The notes beneath the pieces are model-generated. The model was not told where the DNA came from and searched no databases. It saw only the letters and a list, made by a program, of their open reading frames with translations. Shown here in pieces: positions 11,390-50,058 of a DNA stretch of 64,000 bases. The DNA is taken from assembly GCF_006345805.1 (NCBI RefSeq), contig NC_042997.1, forward strand, positions 43,586,001 to 43,650,000, read 5' to 3'. Every line of letters begins with the position of its first letter. The first letter of the stretch is position 1. The DNA comes from Octopus sinensis. Its lineage: Eukaryota. The translations under genes were made by a program, and so were the position numbers.

Positions 11390-12411
11390 TTCTTTCCACT
11401 TTAGACAAAAAGCCTGATATTTTTTGGGGCGGGTGTAAGTCGATTACATCGACCCCAATACTCAACTGATACTAATTTTATCGAGTCTGAAATTATGAAA
11501 GGCAAAGTCAACCTTAGCGGAATTTCAACTCAGAACGTAAAGACAGACGAAATACCTATTTCTTTACTACCCACAAGGGGCTAAACACAGAGAGGACAAA
11601 CAAGGACAGGCAAACGGATTAAGTCGATTATAGCGACCTCAGTGTGTAACTGGTACTTATTTAATCGACCACGGCGGAATTTGAACTCAGAACGTAGCGG
11701 CAGACGAAATACCTATTTCTTTACTACCCACAAGGGGCTAAACACAGAGAGGACAAACAAGGACAGACAAACGGATTAAGTCGATTATAGCGACCTCAGT
11801 ACGTAACTGGTACTTATTTAATCGACCACGGCGGAATTGAACTCAGAACGTAGCGGCAGACGAATACCTATTTCTTTACTACCACAAGGGGCTAAACACA
11901 GAGAGGACAAACAAGGACAGGCAAACGGATTAAGTCGATTATAGCGACCTCAGTGTGTAACTGGTACTTATTTAATCGACCACGGCGGAATTTGAACTCA
12001 GAACGTAGCGGCAGACGAAATACCTATTTCTTTACTACCCACAAGGGGCTAAACACAGAGAGGACAAACAAGGACAGACAAACGGATTAAGTCGATTATA
12101 GCGACCTCAGTACGTAACTGGTACTTATTTAATCGACCACGGCGGAATTTGAACTCAGAACGTAGCGGCAGACGAAATACCTATTTCTTTACTACCCACA
12201 AGGGGCTAAACACAGAGAGGACAAACAAGGACAGACAAACGGATTAAGTTGATTATATCGACCCCAGTGCATAACTGGTACTTATTTAATGGACCCCCGA
12301 AAGGACGAAAGGCAAAGTCAACCACGGCGGAATTTGAACTCAAAACGTAACGGCAGACGAAATACGGCTACGCATTTCGCCCGGCGTGCTAACGTTTCTG
12401 CCAGCTCGCTG
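11390..12411 (-). mobile_element. Multimeric SINE C with about 6 tandem body modules
   Basis: One head at about 12411; module starts at 11673, 11830, 11984 and 12141 (157, 154, 157 bp spacing). Confidence 0.9.
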
Positions 12412-12738: not shown

Positions 12739-13352
12739 AGTTTCAAATATTGGTACAAAACCAGCAATTTTGGGGAAGCAGGTTAAGTTGAGTATATCGA
12801 GTCCACTATTCAATTGGTACTTATTTCATCAATCCCAAAAAGATGAAAGGCAAAGCCGACCTCGGTGGAATTTGAACTCAGAACGTAAAGACGGACGAAA
12901 TGCCGCTAAGTATTTTTCCGGCGTGGTAATGATTCTTATTTCTTTATTGTCCACAAGGGGCTAAACATAGAAGGGACAAACAAGGACAGACAAGGGATTA
13001 AGTCGATTAAATAGACCCCAGTGCATAACTGGTACTTAATTTATCGACCCCGAAAGGATGAAAGGCAAAGTCGACCTCGGCAGAATTTGAACTCAGAACG
13101 TAACGGCAGACGAAATACCTATTTCTTTACTACCCACAAGGGGATAAACATAGAGGGGACAAATAAGGACAGACAAAGGTATTAAGTCGATTACATCGAC
13201 TCCAGTGCGTAACTGGTACTTATTTAATCGACCCCGAAAGGATGAAAGGCAAAGTCGACCAAGGCGGAATTTGAACTCAGAACGTAGCGGCAGACGAAAT
13301 TCTGCTAAGCATTTCGCCCGGCGCGCTAACGATTTTGCCAGCTCATCACCTT
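12739..13352 (-). mobile_element. Trimeric SINE C with probable TSD
   Basis: Three body modules; AAGATTAATATT at 12727-12738 and AAGACTAATATT at 13358-13369. Confidence 0.88.
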
Positions 13353-14662: not shown

Positions 14663-14824
14663 GGCGCAGAAGTGGCTGTGTGGTAAGTAGCTTGCTAACC
14701 AACCACATGGTTCCGGGTTCAGTCCCACTGCGTGGCACCTTGGGCAAGTGTCTTCTACTATAGCCCAGGGCCGACCAATGCCTTGTGAGTGGATTTAGTA
14801 GACGGAAACTGAAAGAAGCCTGTC

Positions 14825-14865
<41 letters not shown>

Positions 14866-15359
14866 AATATAAACAAGAGGGGTAGTAATATTAGTTACTA
14901 CCAAGTGCCCAGCACAAAAGACGAATTAGTCGTTAGACAAAATATTATTCATATAGAAAAATATTGTTCATGTAGAAATACAATTAAAGGCTCCTAATAA
15001 TTTAGGAGCCTTTAATTATATTTCTACATGAACGAGTGCTGGGAACACAAAGGGGATGAACTTATCGAGAGTGAAAATCAAAAACGTTTACCGATAACTT
15101 TACATCTCGGACTGATCAGTTTCTGCCTACTTCTAGCGAAACACAGAATATGATTGCTAAGGCTGGCTTTATCAACGAGTCGCCTAAATTGAATCGAGGT
15201 CTGCAGCGATGTGAGACCATGTGTTTCGCTAGAAGTAGGCAGAAACTGATCAGTCCGAGATGTAAAGTTATCGGTAAACGTTTTTGATTTTCACTCTCGA
15301 TAAGTTCATCCCCTTTGTGTTCCCAGCACTCGGCATCCTAATTTAGAAGCCTTTAATTG

Positions 15360-15431
<72 letters not shown>

Positions 15432-15646
15432 TGTGTTTGTGTCTCCCCCTAGCATTGCTTGACAACCGATGCTGGTGTGTTTACGTCCCCGTCACTTAGC
15501 GGTTCGGCAAAAAGAGACCGATAGAATAAGTACTGGGCTTACAAAAAGAATAAGTCCCGGGTCGATTTGCTCGACTAAAAAGGCGGTGCTCCAGCATGGC
15601 CGCAGTCAAATGACTGAAACAAGTAAAAGAGAAGAGAGTAAAGAGT
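14663..15646 (+). mobile_element. SINE family B, interrupted by a foldback insertion
   Basis: A box TGGCTGTGTGG, B box GGTTCAGTCCC, CORE-like CCTTGGGCAAGT, internal (TA)n(TG)n and AAGAGT-type tail. Confidence 0.9.
14863..15362. mobile_element. Foldback/MITE-like insertion in (TA)n
   Basis: Inverted repeat of 113 bp (15033-15145 / 15220-15332) plus a hairpin at 14966-15033. Confidence 0.75.
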
Positions 15647-15771: not shown

Positions 15772-16054
15772 ATTCCTCCAAATACAATGAAGAAATGATT
15801 CCTCCAAATACAATGAAGAAATGATTCCTCCAAATACAATGAAGCAATGATTCCTCCAAATACAATGAAGAAATGATTCCTCCAAATACAATGAAGCAAT
15901 GATTCCTCCAAATACAATGAAGAAATGATTCCTCCAAATACATGAAGAAATGATTCTCCAAATACAATGAAGCAATGATTCTCCAAATACAATGAAGAAA
16001 TGATTCCTCCAAATACAATGAAGAAATGATTCCTCCAAATACAATGAAGAAATG
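15772..16054. repeat. 26-bp minisatellite, about 11 copies
   Basis: Unit ATTCCTCCAAATACAATGAAG(A/C)AATG. Confidence 0.95.
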
Positions 16055-38508: not shown

Positions 38509-39498
38509 AACAGAACTGAACAACTCTAAACACCTATAACATCGGAAGATGTCACCCAGGCACTGCAAAAAACAAAGTAATTGAAAAGTACCCGGATATG
38601 ACAAGATCTCCAATTTTTGGCCGAAATATTTAACCGGGATACATAAGATGCTGACCGAGAAATTCAATGAGATGCTAGAATAGCCAGAGGCAACATCTGA
38701 ATAACTCACAGAAAGGAAAACCATCCTAATTCCAAACTTCCCTGAAACGACAGACCCACAAAACTACAGACCCATAATATGTTATGGGTCTGTAGTTTTG
38801 TGGGTCTGTCCCTACAACTTACAAAGTCTTAACTGCAAAAATATTGTAGAGAATGGCGCAGGAGTGGCATAGGCGCAGGAGTGGCTGTGTGGTAAGTAGC
38901 TTGCTAACCAACCACATGGTTCCGGGTTCAGTCCCACTGCGTGGTATCTTGGGCAAGTGTCTTCTGCTACAGCCCCGGGCCGACCAATGCCTTGTGAGTG
39001 GATTTGGTAGACGGAAACTGAAAGAAGCCTGTCGTATATATGTATATATATATGTATGTGTGTGTGTGTGTGTTTGTGTATGTGTGTTTGTCCACCTAGC
39101 ATTGCTTGACAACCGATGCTGGTGTGTTTACGTCCCCGTCACTTAGCGGTTCGGCAAAAGAGACCGATAGAATAAGTACTGGGCTTACAAAAAATAAGTT
39201 CCGGGGTCGATTTGCTCGACTAAAGGCGGTGCTCCAGCATGGCCGCAGTCAAATGACTGAAACAAGTAAAAGAGTAAAAAGAGTAATGGGCAAACATATA
39301 GAAGAAAACAACTTGTTTCCAGAAGAGCAGAAGGGTTGCTGCAAAGGACCACATGGCTGTAAAGATCAGTTATTGATCAATAAGCCATAACTGAAGACAG
39401 CTGGAAGGAAAAGAAGGGTCTTGGATCGATTACCGACATTATTCCCCACACGTGGATCCTGGAAACACTAGCCATGAACAGGGTAGCACTAACTATAA
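38509..39498 (+). mobile_element. RLE LINE pre-RT/RT fragment interrupted by SINE B
   Basis: KVPGYDKISNFW, NYRPI, PEEQKGCCKGPHGCKDQLLINK. Confidence 0.85.
38872..39284 (+). mobile_element. SINE family B, full length, with duplicated 5' end
   Basis: Family B sequence preceded by an extra GGCGCAGGAGTGGC at 38855-38868. Confidence 0.93.
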
Positions 39499-39541
39499 TA
39501 AGGCTTTGGTCGGTCCGACGCTGTAATAGAAGACACTTGAA

Positions 39542-39586
39542 CATCCTTGCACAGGGGCCATGCTAATTTTCTCTGTATCGTTCCAA
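39542..39586 (-). pseudogene. U6: U6 snRNA fragment
   Basis: Minus strand TTGGAACGATACAGAGAAAATTAGCATGGCCCCTGTGCAAGGATG has 2 mismatches to the metazoan U6 ACAGAGA box/ISL region as I recall it. Confidence 0.9.
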
Positions 39587-39659
<73 letters not shown>

Positions 39660-43540: not shown

Positions 43541-44047
43541 ATTTTTCTATATTTCCCCATCATTTCCGCCTCCACTAACGATTACATGTAGCAAATAAAT
43601 GAGAGGAAGAAAAATAATAATGTTTGATATGACCTTTATTGTATCGGTACAAGGTAAGATACAACTTCTTCGAGTTGTTGTTGTGCACAGATTTTTTGGA
43701 GTTCTATTATCCATTCTGTAAAGAAGTCAAGTTCATTTGTGAGTAAGTGTTAGAAGACTGATGGAAGAACGAGAGAGAAAGAGTAAAAGAATTATATTCG
43801 CGAGTTGACAAGTAGAGGGGGTGACAGTTGTATAGTAAAGCCGTGACAAATCATACGCGAAGTGCTCTTTAGGGCGGCGGCGGCCAATGAAAGCGGTGAA
43901 AGAAGCAATGGAGGTTGAAGTGAGTTTAGGTACTGTATTTATACATGTTAGAAAGCTGGCTGTAGATCGGAAAAATGGGAAGTAATTGAGTTTATCTTTC
44001 TTGAACTGTATTTAATCCAAGAATGTTCATTTAATCAAAACACGTTA

Positions 44048-44436
44048 TTCTTTACTCTTTTACTCTTTTACTTGTTTCATCCATTTGACTGCGGCCATGC
44101 TGGAGCACCGCCTTTGGTCGAACAAATCGACCCCAGGACTTATTCTTTATAAGCTTAGTACTTATTCTATCGGTCTCTTTTGCCGAACCGCTAAGTTACG
44201 GAGACGTAAACGCACCAACATCAGTTGTCAAGCGAGGACAAAGACAGACACACAAATACATACATATACATACGACGGGCTTCTCTCAGTTTCCATCTTC
44301 TAAATCCACTCACAAGGCTTTGGTTGGCCCGAGGCTATAGTAGAAGACATTTGGCAAAGGTGCCATACAGATGGATTGAACCCGGAACCATGTAGCTCGA
44401 AAGCAAGCTTCTTACCACGTAACCACTCCTGCGCCT
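44048..44436 (-). mobile_element. SINE family B (diverged) whose 5' end runs into the satellite
   Basis: Tail TCTTTACTCTTTTAC, body and head homologous to 26177-26622. Confidence 0.88.
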
Positions 44437-47400
44437 ACGGCCACTCCTGCGCCTACTGCCACTCCTGCGCCTACAGCAACTCCTGCGCCTACAGCCACTC
44501 CTGCGCCTACGGCCACTCCTGCGCCTACGGCCACTCCTGCGCCTACTGCCACTCCTGTGCCTACTGCCACTCCTGCGCCTACGGCCACTCCTGCGCCTAC
44601 GGCCACTCCTGCGCCTACAGCCACTCCTGCGCCTACTGCCACTCCTGCGCCTACAGCCACTCCTGCGCCTACGGCCACTCCTGCGCCTACAGCCACTCCT
44701 GCGCCTACGGCCACTCCTGCGCCTACGGCCACTCCTGCGCCTACAGCCACTCCTGCGCCTACTGCCACTCCTGCGCCTACAGCCACTCCTGCGCCTACAG
44801 CCACTCCTGCGCCTACAGCCACTCTGCGCCTACGGCCACTCCTGCGCCTACAGCCACTCCTGCGCCTACGCCACTCCTGCGCCTACGGCCACTCCTGCGC
44901 CTACCAGCCACTCCTGCGCCTACGGCCACTCCTGCGCCTACGGCCACTCCTGCGCCTACAGCCACTCCTGCGCCTACTGCCACTCCTGCGCCTACGGCCA
45001 CTCCTGCGCCTACGGCCACTCCTGCGCCTACGGCCACTCCTGCGCCTACTGCCACTCCTGCGCCTACAGCCACTCCTGCGCCTACAGCCACTCCTGCGCC
45101 TACAGCCACTCCTGCGCCTACGGCCACTCCTGCGCCTACAGCCACTCCTGCGCCTACGGCCACTCCTGCGCCTACGGCCACTCCTGCGCCTACAGCCACT
45201 CCTGCGCCTACTGCCACTCCTGCGCCTACAGCCACTCCTGCGCCTACGGCCACTCCTGCGCCTACAGCCACTCCTGCGCCTACGGCCACTCCTGCGCCTA
45301 CGGCCACTCCTGCGCCTACAGCCACTCCTGCGCCTACTGCCACTCCTGCGCCTACAGCCACTCCTGCGCCTACAGCCACTCCTGCGCCTACAGCCACTCC
45401 TGCGCCTACGGCCACTCCTGCGCCTACAGCCACTCCTGCGCCTACAGCCACTCCTGCGCCTACGGCCACTCCTGCGCCTACAGCCACTCCTGCGCCTACG
45501 GCCACTCCTGCGCCTACGGCCACTCCTGCGCCTACAGCCACTCCTGCGCCTACTGCCACTCCTGCGCCTACGGCCACTCCTGCGCCTACGGCCACTCCTG
45601 CGCCTACGGCCACTCCTGCGCCTACTGCCACTCCTGCGCCTACAGCCACTCCTGCGCCTACAGCCACTCCTGCGCCTACAGCCACTCCTGCGCCTACGGC
45701 CACTCCTGCGCCTACAGCCACTCCTGCGCCTACAGCCACTCCTGCGCCTACGGCCACTCCTGCGCCTACAGCCACTCCTGCGCCTACGGCCACTCCTGCG
45801 CCTACTGCCACTCCTGCGCCTACAGCCACTCCTGCGCCTACAGCCACTCCTGCGCCTACGGCCACTCCTGCGCCTACTGCCACTCCTGCGCCTACAGCCA
45901 CTCCTGCGCCTACAGCCACTCCTGCGCCTACAGCCACTCTGCGCCTACAGCCACTCCTGCGCCTACAGCCACTCCTGCGCCTACAGCCACTCCTGCGCTA
46001 CAGCCACTCCTGCGCCTACGGCCACTCCTGCGCCTACGGCCACTCCTGCGCCTACGGCCACTCCTGCGCCTACAGCCACTCCTGCGCCTACGGCCACTCC
46101 TGCGCCTACGGCCACTCCTGCGCCTACAGCCACTCCTGCGCCTACAGCCACTCCTGCGCCTACAGCCACTCCTGCGCCTACAGCCACTCCTGCGCTACGG
46201 CCACTCCTGCGCCTACAGCCACTCCTGCGCCTACAGCCACTCCTGCGCCTACAGCCACTCCTGCGCCTACAGCCACTCCTGCGCTACGGCCACTCCTGCG
46301 CCTACAGCCACTCCTGCGCCTACAGCCACTCCTGCGCCTACAGCCACTCCTGCGCCTACAGCCACTCCTGCGCCTACTGCCACTCCTGCGCCTACAGCCA
46401 CTCTGCGCCTACGGCCACTCCTGCGCCTACTGCCACTCCTGCGCCTACAGCCACTCCTGCGCTACAGCCACTCCTGCGCCTACGGCACTCCTGCGCCTAC
46501 AGCCACTCCTGCGCCTACGGCCACTCCTGCGCCTACTGCCACTCCTGCGCCTACAGCCACTCCTGCGCCTACAGCCACTCCTGCGCCTACGGCCACTCCT
46601 GCGCCTACTGCCACTCCTGCGCCTACAGCCACTCCTGCGCCTACAGCCACTCCTGCGCCTACAGCCACTCCTGCGCCTACAGCCACTCCTGCGCCTACAG
46701 CCACTGCGCCTACTGCCACTCCTGCGCCTACGGCCACTCCTGCGCCTGCAGCCACTCCTGCGCCTACAGCCACTCCTGCGCCTACGGCCACTCCTGCGCC
46801 TACAGCCACTCCTGCGCCTACGGCCACTCCTGCGCCTACTGCCACTCCTGCGCCTACGGCCACTCCTGCGCCTACAGCCACTCCTGCGCCTACAGCCACT
46901 CCTGCGCCTACAGCCACTCCTGCGCCTACAGCCACTCCTGCGCCTACGGCCACTCCTGCGCCTACAGCCACTCCTGCGCCTACGGCCACTCCTGCGCCTA
47001 CAGCCACTCCTGCGCCTACAGCCACTCCTGCGCCTACAGCCACTCCTGCGCCTACAGCCACTCCTGCGCCTACGCCACTCCTGCGCCTACAGCACACTCC
47101 TGCGCCTACGGCCACTCCTGCGCCTACAGCCACTCCTGCGCCTACGGCCACTCCTGCGCCTACGGCCACTCCTGCGCCTACGGCCACTCCTGCGCCTACA
47201 GCCACTCCTGCGCCTACGGCCACTCCTGCGCCTACAGCCACTCCTGCGCCTACAGCCACTCCTGCGCCTACAGCCACTCCTGCGCCTACGGCCACTCCTG
47301 CGCCTACAGCCACTCCTGCGCCTACAGCCACTCCTGCGCCTACAGCCACTCCTGCGCCTACAGCCACTCCTGCGCCTACGGCCACTCCTGCGCCTACAGC

Positions 47401-49054
47401 CACTCCTGCGCCTACAGCCACTCCTGCGCCTACAGCCACTCCTGCGCCTACAGCCACTCCTGCGCCTACGGCCACTCCTGCGCCTACAGCCACTCCTGCG
47501 CCTACAGCCACTCCTGCGCCTACAGCCACTCCTGCGCCTACGGCCACTCCTGCGCCTACAGCCACTCCTGCGCCTACAGCCACTCCTGCGCCTACGGCCA
47601 CTCCTGCGCCTACAGCCACTCCTGCGCCTACAGCCACTCCTGCGCCTACGGCCACTCCTGCGCCTACAGCCACTCCTGCGCCTACAGCCACTCCTGCGCC
47701 TACGGCCACTCCTGCGCCTACGGCCACTCCTGCGCCTACAGCCACTCCTGCGCCTACGGCCACTCCTGCGCCTACAGCCACTCCTGCGCCTACAGCACCC
47801 TCCTGCGCCTACGGCCACTCCTGCGCCTACAGCCACTCCTGCGCCTACAGCCACTCCTGCGCCTACAGCCACTCCTGCGCCTACGCCACTCCTGCGCCTA
47901 CAGCCACTCCTGCGCCTACAGCCACTCTGCGCCTACGGCCACTCCTGCGCCTACGGCCACTCCTGCGCCTACAGCCACTCCTGCGCCTACAGCCACTCCT
48001 GCGCCTACGGCCACTCCTGCGCCTACTGCCACTCCTCCTGCGCCTACGGCCACTCCTGCGCCTACGGCCACTCCTGCGCTACAGCCACTCCTGCGCCTAC
48101 GGCCACTCTCCTGCGCCTACGGCCACTCCTGCGCCTACAGCCACTCCTGCGCCTACAGCCACTCCTGCGCCTACAGCCACTCCTGCGCCTACAGCCACTC
48201 CTGCGCCTACAGCCACTCCTGCGCCTACGGCCACTCCTGCGCCTACAGCCACTCCTGCGCCTACGGCCACTCCTGCGCCTACGGCCACTCCTGCGCCTAC
48301 AGCCACTCCTGCGCCTACAGCCACTCCTGCGCCTACAGCCACTCCTGCGCCTACGGCCACTCCTGCGCCTACAGTCACTCCTGCGCCTACAGCCACTCCT
48401 GCGCCTACGGCCACTCCTGCGCCTACGGCCACTCCTGCGCCTACAGCCACTCCTGCGCCTACTGCCACTCTGCGCCTACGGCCACTCCTGCGCCTACGGC
48501 CACTCCTGCGCCTACAGCCACTCCTGCGCCTACGGCCACTCCTGCGCCTACGGCCACTCCTGCGCCTACAGCCACTCCTGCGCCTACAGCCACTCCTGCG
48601 CCTACAGCCACTCCTGCGCCTACAGCCACTCCTGCGCCTACGGCCACTCCTGCGCCTACAGCACACTCCTGCGCCTACAGCCACTCCTGCGCCTACAGCC
48701 ACTCCTGCGCCTACGGCCACTCCTGCGCCTACGGCCACTCCTGCGCCTACAGCCACTCCTGCGCCTACAGCCACTCCTGCGCCTACAGCCACTCCTGCGC
48801 CTACAGCCACTCCTGCGCCTACAGCCACTCCTGCGCCTACGGCCACTCCTGCGCCTACGGCCACTCCTGCGCCTACAGCCACTCCTGCGCCTACTGCCAC
48901 TCCTGCGCCTACAGCCACTCCTGCGCCTACAGCCACTCCTGCGCCTACAGCCACTCCTGCGCCTACAGCCACTCCTGCGCCTACAGCCACTCCTGCGCCT
49001 ACAGCCACTCCTGCGCCTACAGCCACTCCTGCGCCTACTGCCACTCCTGCGCCT
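44423..49054. repeat. 18-bp satellite, about 257 units by length
   Basis: Unit GCCACTCCTGCGCCTAC[A/G/T]. Confidence 0.98.
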
Positions 49055-49174
49055 AGTTGATCCCCATAAATTTCTCTGTGTTAGTATTGAGAACAACTCG
49101 TCGAAAAATCTAGACTGCGTTTCAAACTTGGCTAAGAATCTAGAAAGCTGTGTGTGTGTGTGTGTGTGTGTGTG

Positions 49175-49632: not shown

Positions 49633-50058
49633 GATGATGATGATGATGATGGATGGTGGTGGTGGTGGTAGTGGTGGTGGTGGTGGTGGTGGTGGTGAAA
49701 GGTGGTGGTGGTGGCGGTGGTGGCGGTGGTGGTGGATGGCGGTGGTGGTGGTGGTGGATGGTGGATGGTGGTGGTGGTAGTGGTGGATGGTGGTGGTGGT
49801 GGTGGTTGTGGTTGTGGTGGTGGTGTGGTGGTGGTGGTGGTGGTGGTGGTGGTGGGTGGTGGTGGTGGTGGTGGTTGTGGTGGTGGTGGTTGTGGTGGTT
49901 GTGTGGTGGTGGTGGTGGTGGTGGTGTGGTTGTGGTGGTGGTGGTGGTGGTGGTTGGTGTGGTGGTGGTGGTGGTGGTTGTGGTGGTGGTGGTTGTGGTG
50001 GTTGTGGTGGTGGTGGTTGGTGGTGGTGGTTGTGGTGGTGGTGGTTGTGGTGGTGGTG
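49633..50058. repeat. (GAT)n to (GGT)n compound microsatellite
   Basis: Directly visible; preceded by an RTE-tail-like GGCATGGAACGCCGATGTTAAA. Confidence 0.95.

Follow-up and report, generated by a model that had tools for sequence, protein, structure and literature searches.

An 18-nt minisatellite of 257 units continuous with the head of an old SINE in Octopus sinensis, and its possible two-stage origin

We analysed a 64,000-nucleotide stretch of the Octopus sinensis genome (NCBI RefSeq assembly GCF_006345805.1, contig NC_042997.1, forward-strand positions 43,586,001 to 43,650,000; hereafter the window, with positions counted from its first letter). In this window, a 4.6-kb tandem array on the minus strand runs unbroken and in register into a full-length copy of a short interspersed element (SINE), here SINE B, which extends from 44437 down to ~44047. 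The array at 44438-49055 consists of 257 units of GTAGGCGCAGGAGTGGC followed by T, C or A, and this unit is, letter for letter, the head of another SINE B copy at 38871. A preliminary description of this DNA had proposed both the identity of the minus-strand unit with the SINE B 5´ terminus and the in-register fusion at ~44436, and both are borne out. It had also presented the array as a satellite caught at its origin; because the host SINE is old (6-12% diverged) and the array, with its uniform units, has undergone recent turnover, the locus is instead a mature minisatellite on an old seed. As to how it arose, we lean towards a two-stage origin in which reverse-transcriptase stutter would have left a short seed that DNA turnover expanded much later. 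Beyond what the preliminary description contained, we found that the 38871 copy has a doubled head and that the host at 44436 is far more diverged than its array.

TRF called a repeat of period 18 at 44423-49055 (257.8 copies, 95% matches), and a 13-mer core of the unit gave 256 matches across the window with up to two mismatches, versus 0.42 expected and a maximum of 2 in shuffles. Exact units make up 232 of the 257 (130 ending in T, 82 in C and 20 in A). When the units with indels are included, the variable base is T in 144, C in 86 and A in 23, with 4 unassignable, and a check of all 257 units found no G. This last base, which lies at the unit junction, is the sole common variable site; among the 236 units of 18 nt, the other 17 positions hold four singleton substitutions, and with the variable base set aside the divergence of the array is ~0.1%. 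Indels are present in 21 of the 257 units. The copies of a duplicated block differ in seven units, in every case by indels, which suggests that these are consensus errors of long-read sequencing or changes that came late.

At 18 nt x 257 and a single locus, the array is a minisatellite rather than the satellite family that the preliminary description implied. Its derivation from a SINE shows in the head-to-tail units, each homologous to a portion of the SINE and shorter than the whole element, in the terminal unit, which continues into the remainder of the parent element, and in the homogenisation of the units together with local block duplication. The 5-10 bp flanking direct repeats of the Haber-Louis model of minisatellite origin are absent, the head offering only a 2-nt GT at 18-nt spacing. 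No telomeric doublet was found in the window. Most likely, the locus is neutral and length-variable, with no function indicated.

SINEs and broken reverse-transcriptase frames of long interspersed elements (LINEs) abound in the window, and four of its SINE B copies bear a head. The host copy can be aligned end to end with both the 38871 and the 26622 copy and shows the layout of the family, with a box-like head, a CORE-like stretch, a TA/TG microsatellite middle and a tail of short repeats. The A-box-like and B-box-like motifs of the head were labelled by the consensus sequences of the two boxes. The array unit contains the first 5 of the 11 letters of the A-box-like motif, so the earlier statement that the unit includes the first half of the A box stands for those letters, with the identity of the motif itself depending on likeness to the box consensus; neither ARAGORN nor Rfam matched a tRNA in the head, and folds were not above shuffles.

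The contig comparison used here and below covered 4 of 24 listed runs over the stretch 43560-44500, with three organisms represented by contigs (X1, X19 and X6) and one run by raw reads (X21). In it, the host copy differs from the family majority at many sites, and the summed contig depth of SINE B reaches tens of millions, versus 69.5 for unique flank in X1. Dispersed high copy number and a short-repeat tail are both features of tRNA-derived SINEs. Five-bp target duplications are present at 38871 (AATGG) and around 14663-15640 (TATTG), and none was seen at the 26622 copy. An antisense translation of the SINE matches a predicted Octopus vulgaris protein with 81% identity; as this protein is itself an antisense read of SINE B, the family is an Octopus element. 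Octopus is also the host of the tRNA-derived CORE-SINEs OR1 and OR2 (Ohshima and Okada, 1994, as cited in PMC4824008, PMC4758252 and PMC5804259), and SINE B is like OR1 and OR2 in its host, A/B-box-like head, CORE-like stretch and short-repeat tail. It may be OR1 or OR2, a lead that compares descriptions rather than sequences.

The host SINE B differs from the younger copies in the window at 42 of 345 compared sites, with the younger copies showing 3-7% mutual difference. For 20 of the 42, between 41% and 98% of the family contig depth has the other letter, and the remaining 22 may be subfamily marks. At a published octopus rate of 0.0036 per million years (PMC13282606), the 6-12% divergence of the host corresponds to ~17-37 million years, and the singleton divergence of the array to ~0.3 million years. 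Turnover is also recorded in the order of the variable base. Two tandem 32-unit blocks repeat the same order exactly (43.2 bits, versus a maximum of 19.9 in 200 shuffles), a second duplication of 15 units is borderline (18.6 bits), and redundancy is strong in the proximal 72 units, with 0 of 2000 shuffles reaching so low a value. These block duplications confirm the enlargement by slippage or unequal exchange that had been suggested. Over the distal 185 units, the order is indistinguishable from random (P = 0.07-0.18), and one stretch of 65 units is without an A variant (P = 0.02). Ongoing CpG decay is an unlikely source of the T and C variants, given that the other CpG of the unit is intact in all but one unit. 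A structural cause of the expansion is likewise unsupported, with hairpins of the unit no better than those of shuffles (z of 0.49 and 0.29) and a G4Hunter score of 0.60, the usual cut-off being ~1.2.

The position of the unit within the SINE could be approached through database open reading frames (ORFs) that run antisense through the SINE head. Three of six (P0009, P0023 and P0025) have a Tyr codon in register directly before GGCG, which on the SINE strand is GTA or ATA; P0053 and P0060 have no Tyr at this place, and P0026, with its Tyr two codons early, was not counted. At a chance of 0.058 per codon, this outcome has P = 0.003 for the six ORFs. Because of these in-register codons, the 5´ end of the family likely reads (G/A)TAGGCG. 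With such a start, the unit would comprise positions 1-18, the variable base would be position 18, and the GT at 19-20 would repeat the GT at 1-2. This numbering is the phasing of the preliminary description and places the variable base exactly at the junction. Under random point mutation, the chance that two common variants fall on one of the 18 unit sites is ~0.04. The terminal start and the variability at the junction, both read from sequence, together offer modest evidence for a seed made at the RNA end.

Doubled heads are also found elsewhere in the family. The younger copy at 38871 carries an extra head unit at 38855-38870; its doubled head, GGCGCAGGAGTGGC-ATAGGCGCAGG, is enclosed by the target site duplication (TSD) of the element. 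This copy interrupts a LINE-like frame that reads ...AKIL*RM / MGKHIEENN... across the site; the resumption of the frame past the tail rules out that one SINE had inserted into the head of another. In the window, the head is thus repeated in 2 of the 4 head-bearing SINE B copies, versus none of the three SINE family C copies that could be assessed. All three organisms have contigs across the tandem junction at 44456-44457. A G-to-A form at 44456 makes up 33% of the depth in X1, 49% in X19 and 82% in X6 (20, 25 and 21 contigs), with a 1-nt deletion at the same position, like the junction of the 38871 copy, in 6, 6 and 2 contigs. Since neither form occurs among the 257 units of the array, both stem from other loci. 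All junction types seen fit one rule, a restart at RTAGG after zero or one variable base. Protein searches found no further tandem-head locus. As a separate observation, the 17-nt junction of the 38871 copy spells TGGCATAGGCG at 38866-38876, nearer to the A-box consensus than the family's own box; given this improved fit, doubled-head copies might be transcribed from further upstream and be spreading as a sub-lineage.

In the two-stage origin that we favour, the reverse transcriptase of the partner LINE would, at SINE insertion, run to the 5´ terminus of the SINE RNA and re-engage ~18 bases back for a few rounds, leaving a short multi-unit head. For re-engagement, the cDNA end (..AC) could pair again with GU (RNA positions 19-20), or it could jump to a short 5´ fragment. 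The enzyme would be prone to err at the base that it adds next, which could give rise to the T, C and A variants, later shuffled by DNA turnover, and DNA slippage or unequal exchange would have enlarged the head to 257 units much later. We infer the seed itself in this scheme. We favour re-engagement of the reverse transcriptase because the RTAGG rule covers all junction types and because enzymes of elements without long terminal repeats (non-LTR) add bases on run-off, and growth at the DNA level because of the 32-unit duplication and the proximal redundancy. Seeding by re-copying of the RNA 5´ end, as the preliminary description had suggested, is thus the best-fitting origin, in view of the terminal start, the variable base at the junction and the recurrent doubled heads, one of them inside a TSD.

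Several points weigh against the two-stage origin. The distal flank and the flank past the SINE tail (44044-44046) have only AAC in common, so a TSD spanning array plus SINE, which the preliminary description had looked to, is 3 nt at best, too short to be convincing. None of the RNA runs scanned contained the array stretch, so the RNA 5´ end is placed by sequence, and the Tyr test that places it draws on just six ORFs. The random-like order of the distal units is not specifically predicted by later DNA turnover. The one raw-read run, X21, was uninformative, with 436 reads that lay mostly on the microsatellite middle and none 99% alike. Finally, the GT..GT micro-repeat (1-2 and 19-20) suits a DNA slip equally well, and another SINE family in the same window has an internal tandem repeat of 157 nt x 5.

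These last two points belong to the explanation that survives best among the alternatives, in which DNA processes alone were at work: a slip after insertion between the GT at 1-2 and the GT at 19-20 would have doubled the head, point mutation would have supplied C and A, and turnover would have expanded the result. Consistent with this, the family head has its micro-repeat at exactly 18-nt spacing, short flanking repeats are the basis of the standard model for minisatellites derived from Alu (PMC6947457, PMC3389668), and block duplication is evident in the array. The 157-nt x 5 array further strengthens the case, since it indicates that duplication of SINE parts at the DNA level is common in the window. 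We nevertheless consider this explanation, a serious rival, less probable than the two-stage origin. The repeat is just 2 nt long, versus 5-10 or 5-20 bp in the published model, both common variants must fall on one site (~0.04, as above), the A-start and 17-nt junctions found elsewhere require separate explanations, and a slip would have no reason to start at the RNA terminus.

A stronger role for the enzyme is that the LINE reverse transcriptase, at the time of insertion or more recently at a break beside the old SINE head, reiterated the first 18 nt of the SINE RNA into tens to hundreds of units, only part of which were later duplicated as DNA. If the RNA begins at G, the GT repeat at 1-2 and 19-20 could act as an alignment region, so that a 2-nt alignment region would adjoin an 18-nt template and each realignment would be followed first by the variable base. 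Read on the cDNA strand, this base is A in 144, G in 86, T in 23 and C in none, which would be the order expected from pairing with a template U. The distal 185 units look like independent draws, and a recent event would reconcile the young array with the old SINE and with near-absence of the unit from X6. On the other hand, the 32-unit duplication and the proximal 72-unit redundancy require copying of DNA, such that independent synthesis of units without higher-order copying fails for the proximal 72 and is compatible with the distal 185. The 65-unit stretch lacking an A variant also speaks against it, prolonged turnover, or consensus calling out of register, would equally yield a random-looking order, and the variant frequencies of today may be founder effects. 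In the literature searched, we found no case of a SINE-derived repeat made by reiteration of a reverse transcriptase. We regard it as improbable that an octopus LINE reverse transcriptase acts like telomerase on SINE RNA, re-pairing at GU 18 bases back, copying repeatedly, misreading the first base and so writing long arrays, and as slightly more improbable still that the present array was mostly made in this way.

It is very unlikely that the length of the array or its junction with the SINE is an artefact of assembly. The consensus does look unpolished, with indels in 21 of 257 units and in every difference between blocks, and no contig or read across the SINE-array junction or the whole array was found among the 24 listed of ~369,000 pieces. 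Against an artefact, short-read contigs of two studies carry array-type unit junctions at a depth near that of a one-array simulation, an X19 contig joins unique flank to the SINE tail (by 26 nt), and the 38871 copy shows the in-register fusion on a small scale. The simulation consisted of de Bruijn pieces of the array alone, with error k-mers removed and depth scaled to single-copy. Scaled array-bin depths were 338/61 in X1 and 383/69 in X19, versus 364/99 simulated, and ~41/2 in X6, for which the single-copy depth of ~15 is an estimate from flank rows and the flank is diverged. Summed contig depth is not copy number and is not tied to the array locus, which also counts against the two-stage origin; still, the closeness of the X1 and X19 values to the single-array simulation suggests about one array's worth of the unit per genome in these two, and near absence in the more distant X6. 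Our confirmation of the array is limited to the sequence as assembled.

The last alternative, that the array has been kept as a coding repeat, either (TATPAP)n of the plus strand or (GAGVAV)n of the minus strand, is the least credible. The variable base is synonymous in both frames, and the letters recur in an archaeal gene as the code for a TPAPTA linker, but no other third codon position is commonly variable, three of the four singleton substitutions are non-synonymous in either frame, the surroundings are full of broken LINE pieces and SINEs, and protein searches, made with the third (HSCAY) frame rather than the TATPAP and GAGVAV frames, returned no tandem relative (a single match in one search, none in another, and the repeat in 0 of 84 matches of a further one). 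That archaeal lipoprotein-like gene (L001 465-1169), the only match in a prokaryote genome, has a convergent TPAPTA linker with the letters of two units and is unrelated. Exact-pattern scans for the unit found none in metagenome contigs or viral contigs.

Table 1. Features of the array, its host SINE B and the doubled-head copy (window positions)
Feature	Positions	Strand	Remarks
Minisatellite array, 257 units of GTAGGCGCAGGAGTGGC plus T, C or A	44438..49055	-	distal unit begins at T, leading G missing
Distal flank ending in GGGATCAAC	49056..49085	-	from sequence
Tandem duplication of 32-unit blocks, same T/C/A order	44582..45732	-	blocks start at 45732 and 45156
Host SINE B copy, full length, older subfamily	44047..44437	-	head is the last array repeat; tail of AAAAGAGT repeats
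A-box-like motif, degenerate, TGGTTACGTGG (TGGCTGTGTGG in younger copies)	44415..44425	-	from sequence; named by box consensus
B-box-like motif GGTTCAATCC	44373..44382	-	from sequence; named by box consensus
CORE-domain-like stretch after the tRNA-like head	44344..44364	-	by-eye likeness to oyster Cgi_CORE_1 line (PMC4758252 supplement)
Younger SINE B copy with doubled head	38855..39285	+	extra 16-17 nt, junction GGC-ATAGGCG
Left TSD copy AATGG, 5 bp	38852..38856	+	right copy 39285-39289; encloses the doubled head

Other repeats in the window were recorded alongside these features. The SINE family with the internal tandem repeat has 157 nt x 5 (higher period 311 nt) and 184 nt x 2, at 11517-12295 and 12937-13300, a small array like the SINE-derived satellites (sSats) of squamates, and most of its copies have terminal redundancy. 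A second tRNA-like SINE family, at 2, 885, 43540 (minus strand) and 61604, is young (96-98% alike) and has no doubled heads; two of its copies have target duplications of 10-11 bp, and these suggest a different partner LINE. Some 600 bp past the distal end of the array lies a 400-bp (TGG)n/(ACC)n repeat (49654-50058) with its G-rich strand opposite to that of the array, and an unrelated minisatellite of 26 nt x 11 occupies 15772-16054. One SINE B copy (5´ half 14663-14848, 3´ half 15372-15640) is split at its TA microsatellite by an insert of ~500 nt at 14849-15371, which by eye contains a long inverted repeat like a miniature inverted-repeat transposable element or foldback piece. On the minus strand at 39500-39614, a piece of U6 small nuclear RNA (model positions 1-73; Rfam score 57.7 bits) is joined to 40 nt from inside SINE B, next to an (AAT)25 run, and looks like a template-switch or repair chimera. 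The window-wide Rfam list otherwise held mostly sub-threshold microRNA matches driven by microsatellites. Protein P0028 contains a thrice-repeated peptide like an antisense read of the SINE head (44-48% over 25 residues). The peptide may itself be an antisense read of a glycine tRNA, in which case the SINE head would be tRNA-Gly-like.

The underlying process is a known one, as SINE-derived minisatellites have been described in the mouse B1-derived (GGCAGA)n family of variable-number tandem repeats (Bois et al., 1998) and the human Alu-derived (CGGGAGGC)n minisatellites (Jurka and Gentles, 2006; both as cited in PMC6947457), and related arrays in squamates; what sets the present array apart is a terminal unit with telomerase-like geometry. 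The B1 and Alu minisatellites resemble the array in that part of a SINE expanded in place into a G-rich tandem repeat with a short unit; the array differs in its terminal 18-nt unit, variable junction base, lack of a 5-10 bp flanking repeat and mollusc host. Partial duplications of the Alu 5´ part make up 136 of 7,276 tandem repeats that stem from transposable elements (TEs) in the human genome, and the Alu-derived repeats appear to begin with retrotransposition and then grow slowly in place, older elements having more units (Ahmed and Liang, 2012, PMC3389668). They are like the array as repeats of a partial SINE on the 5´ side of a near-full copy; however, the Alu partial-repeat units average 88.6 bp and most unexplained repeats have two units, versus 18 nt x 257. 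The squamate SINE-derived satellites sSat1-3 (Vassetzky et al., 2023, PMC10702118) likewise are arrays of part of a SINE in which the terminal unit is longer and reaches the SINE end, with few to hundreds of units and greater uniformity in long arrays. Their units are 70-290 nt long and form multi-locus subtelomeric families, in contrast to an 18-nt unit in about one long array by contig depth; the array works like an sSat and is a minisatellite by unit length. Likeness to the human minisatellite core GGGCAGGANG (PMC2408603) appears to be no more than partial.

For the enzymatic step, R2 reverse transcriptases add non-templated bases on template run-off (PMC2718515, PMC3774820), and R2 5´ junctions show short direct duplications (13-28 nt) and extra bases gained during insertion (PMC3774820, PMC2718515, PMC11371274). 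The R2 duplications copy RNA-borne target 28S sequence once, whereas the array repeats the element's own head and then amplifies it. Neither this array nor reiteration of a terminal SINE head is described in the literature searched (octopus and cephalopod repeats, reiterated heads), a search with subscription papers, Repbase and Dfam largely outside its reach, and the available text of a 2026 O. vulgaris repeat annotation (PMC13282606) does not mention the array.

The first duplication in minisatellites is mostly unexplained, and standard models account for ~6% of human TE-derived tandem repeats (PMC3389668). The SINE B family appears to make a terminal doubling repeatedly, in forms that range from two units to 257, and a seed made by RNA copying could be separated from a DNA slip by one genome-wide count in this family. 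If reiteration exceeds a few rounds, an ordinary LINE enzyme would be shown to add repeats in a natural genome, and if the telomerase-like reading is true, the array locus would stand at the far end of a series of stuttered heads across the family. If there is no long reiteration, the locus would be a tidy cephalopod case of a known process and likely a hypervariable marker. Its value thus lies in a testable series of stuttered heads rather than in a satellite at birth.

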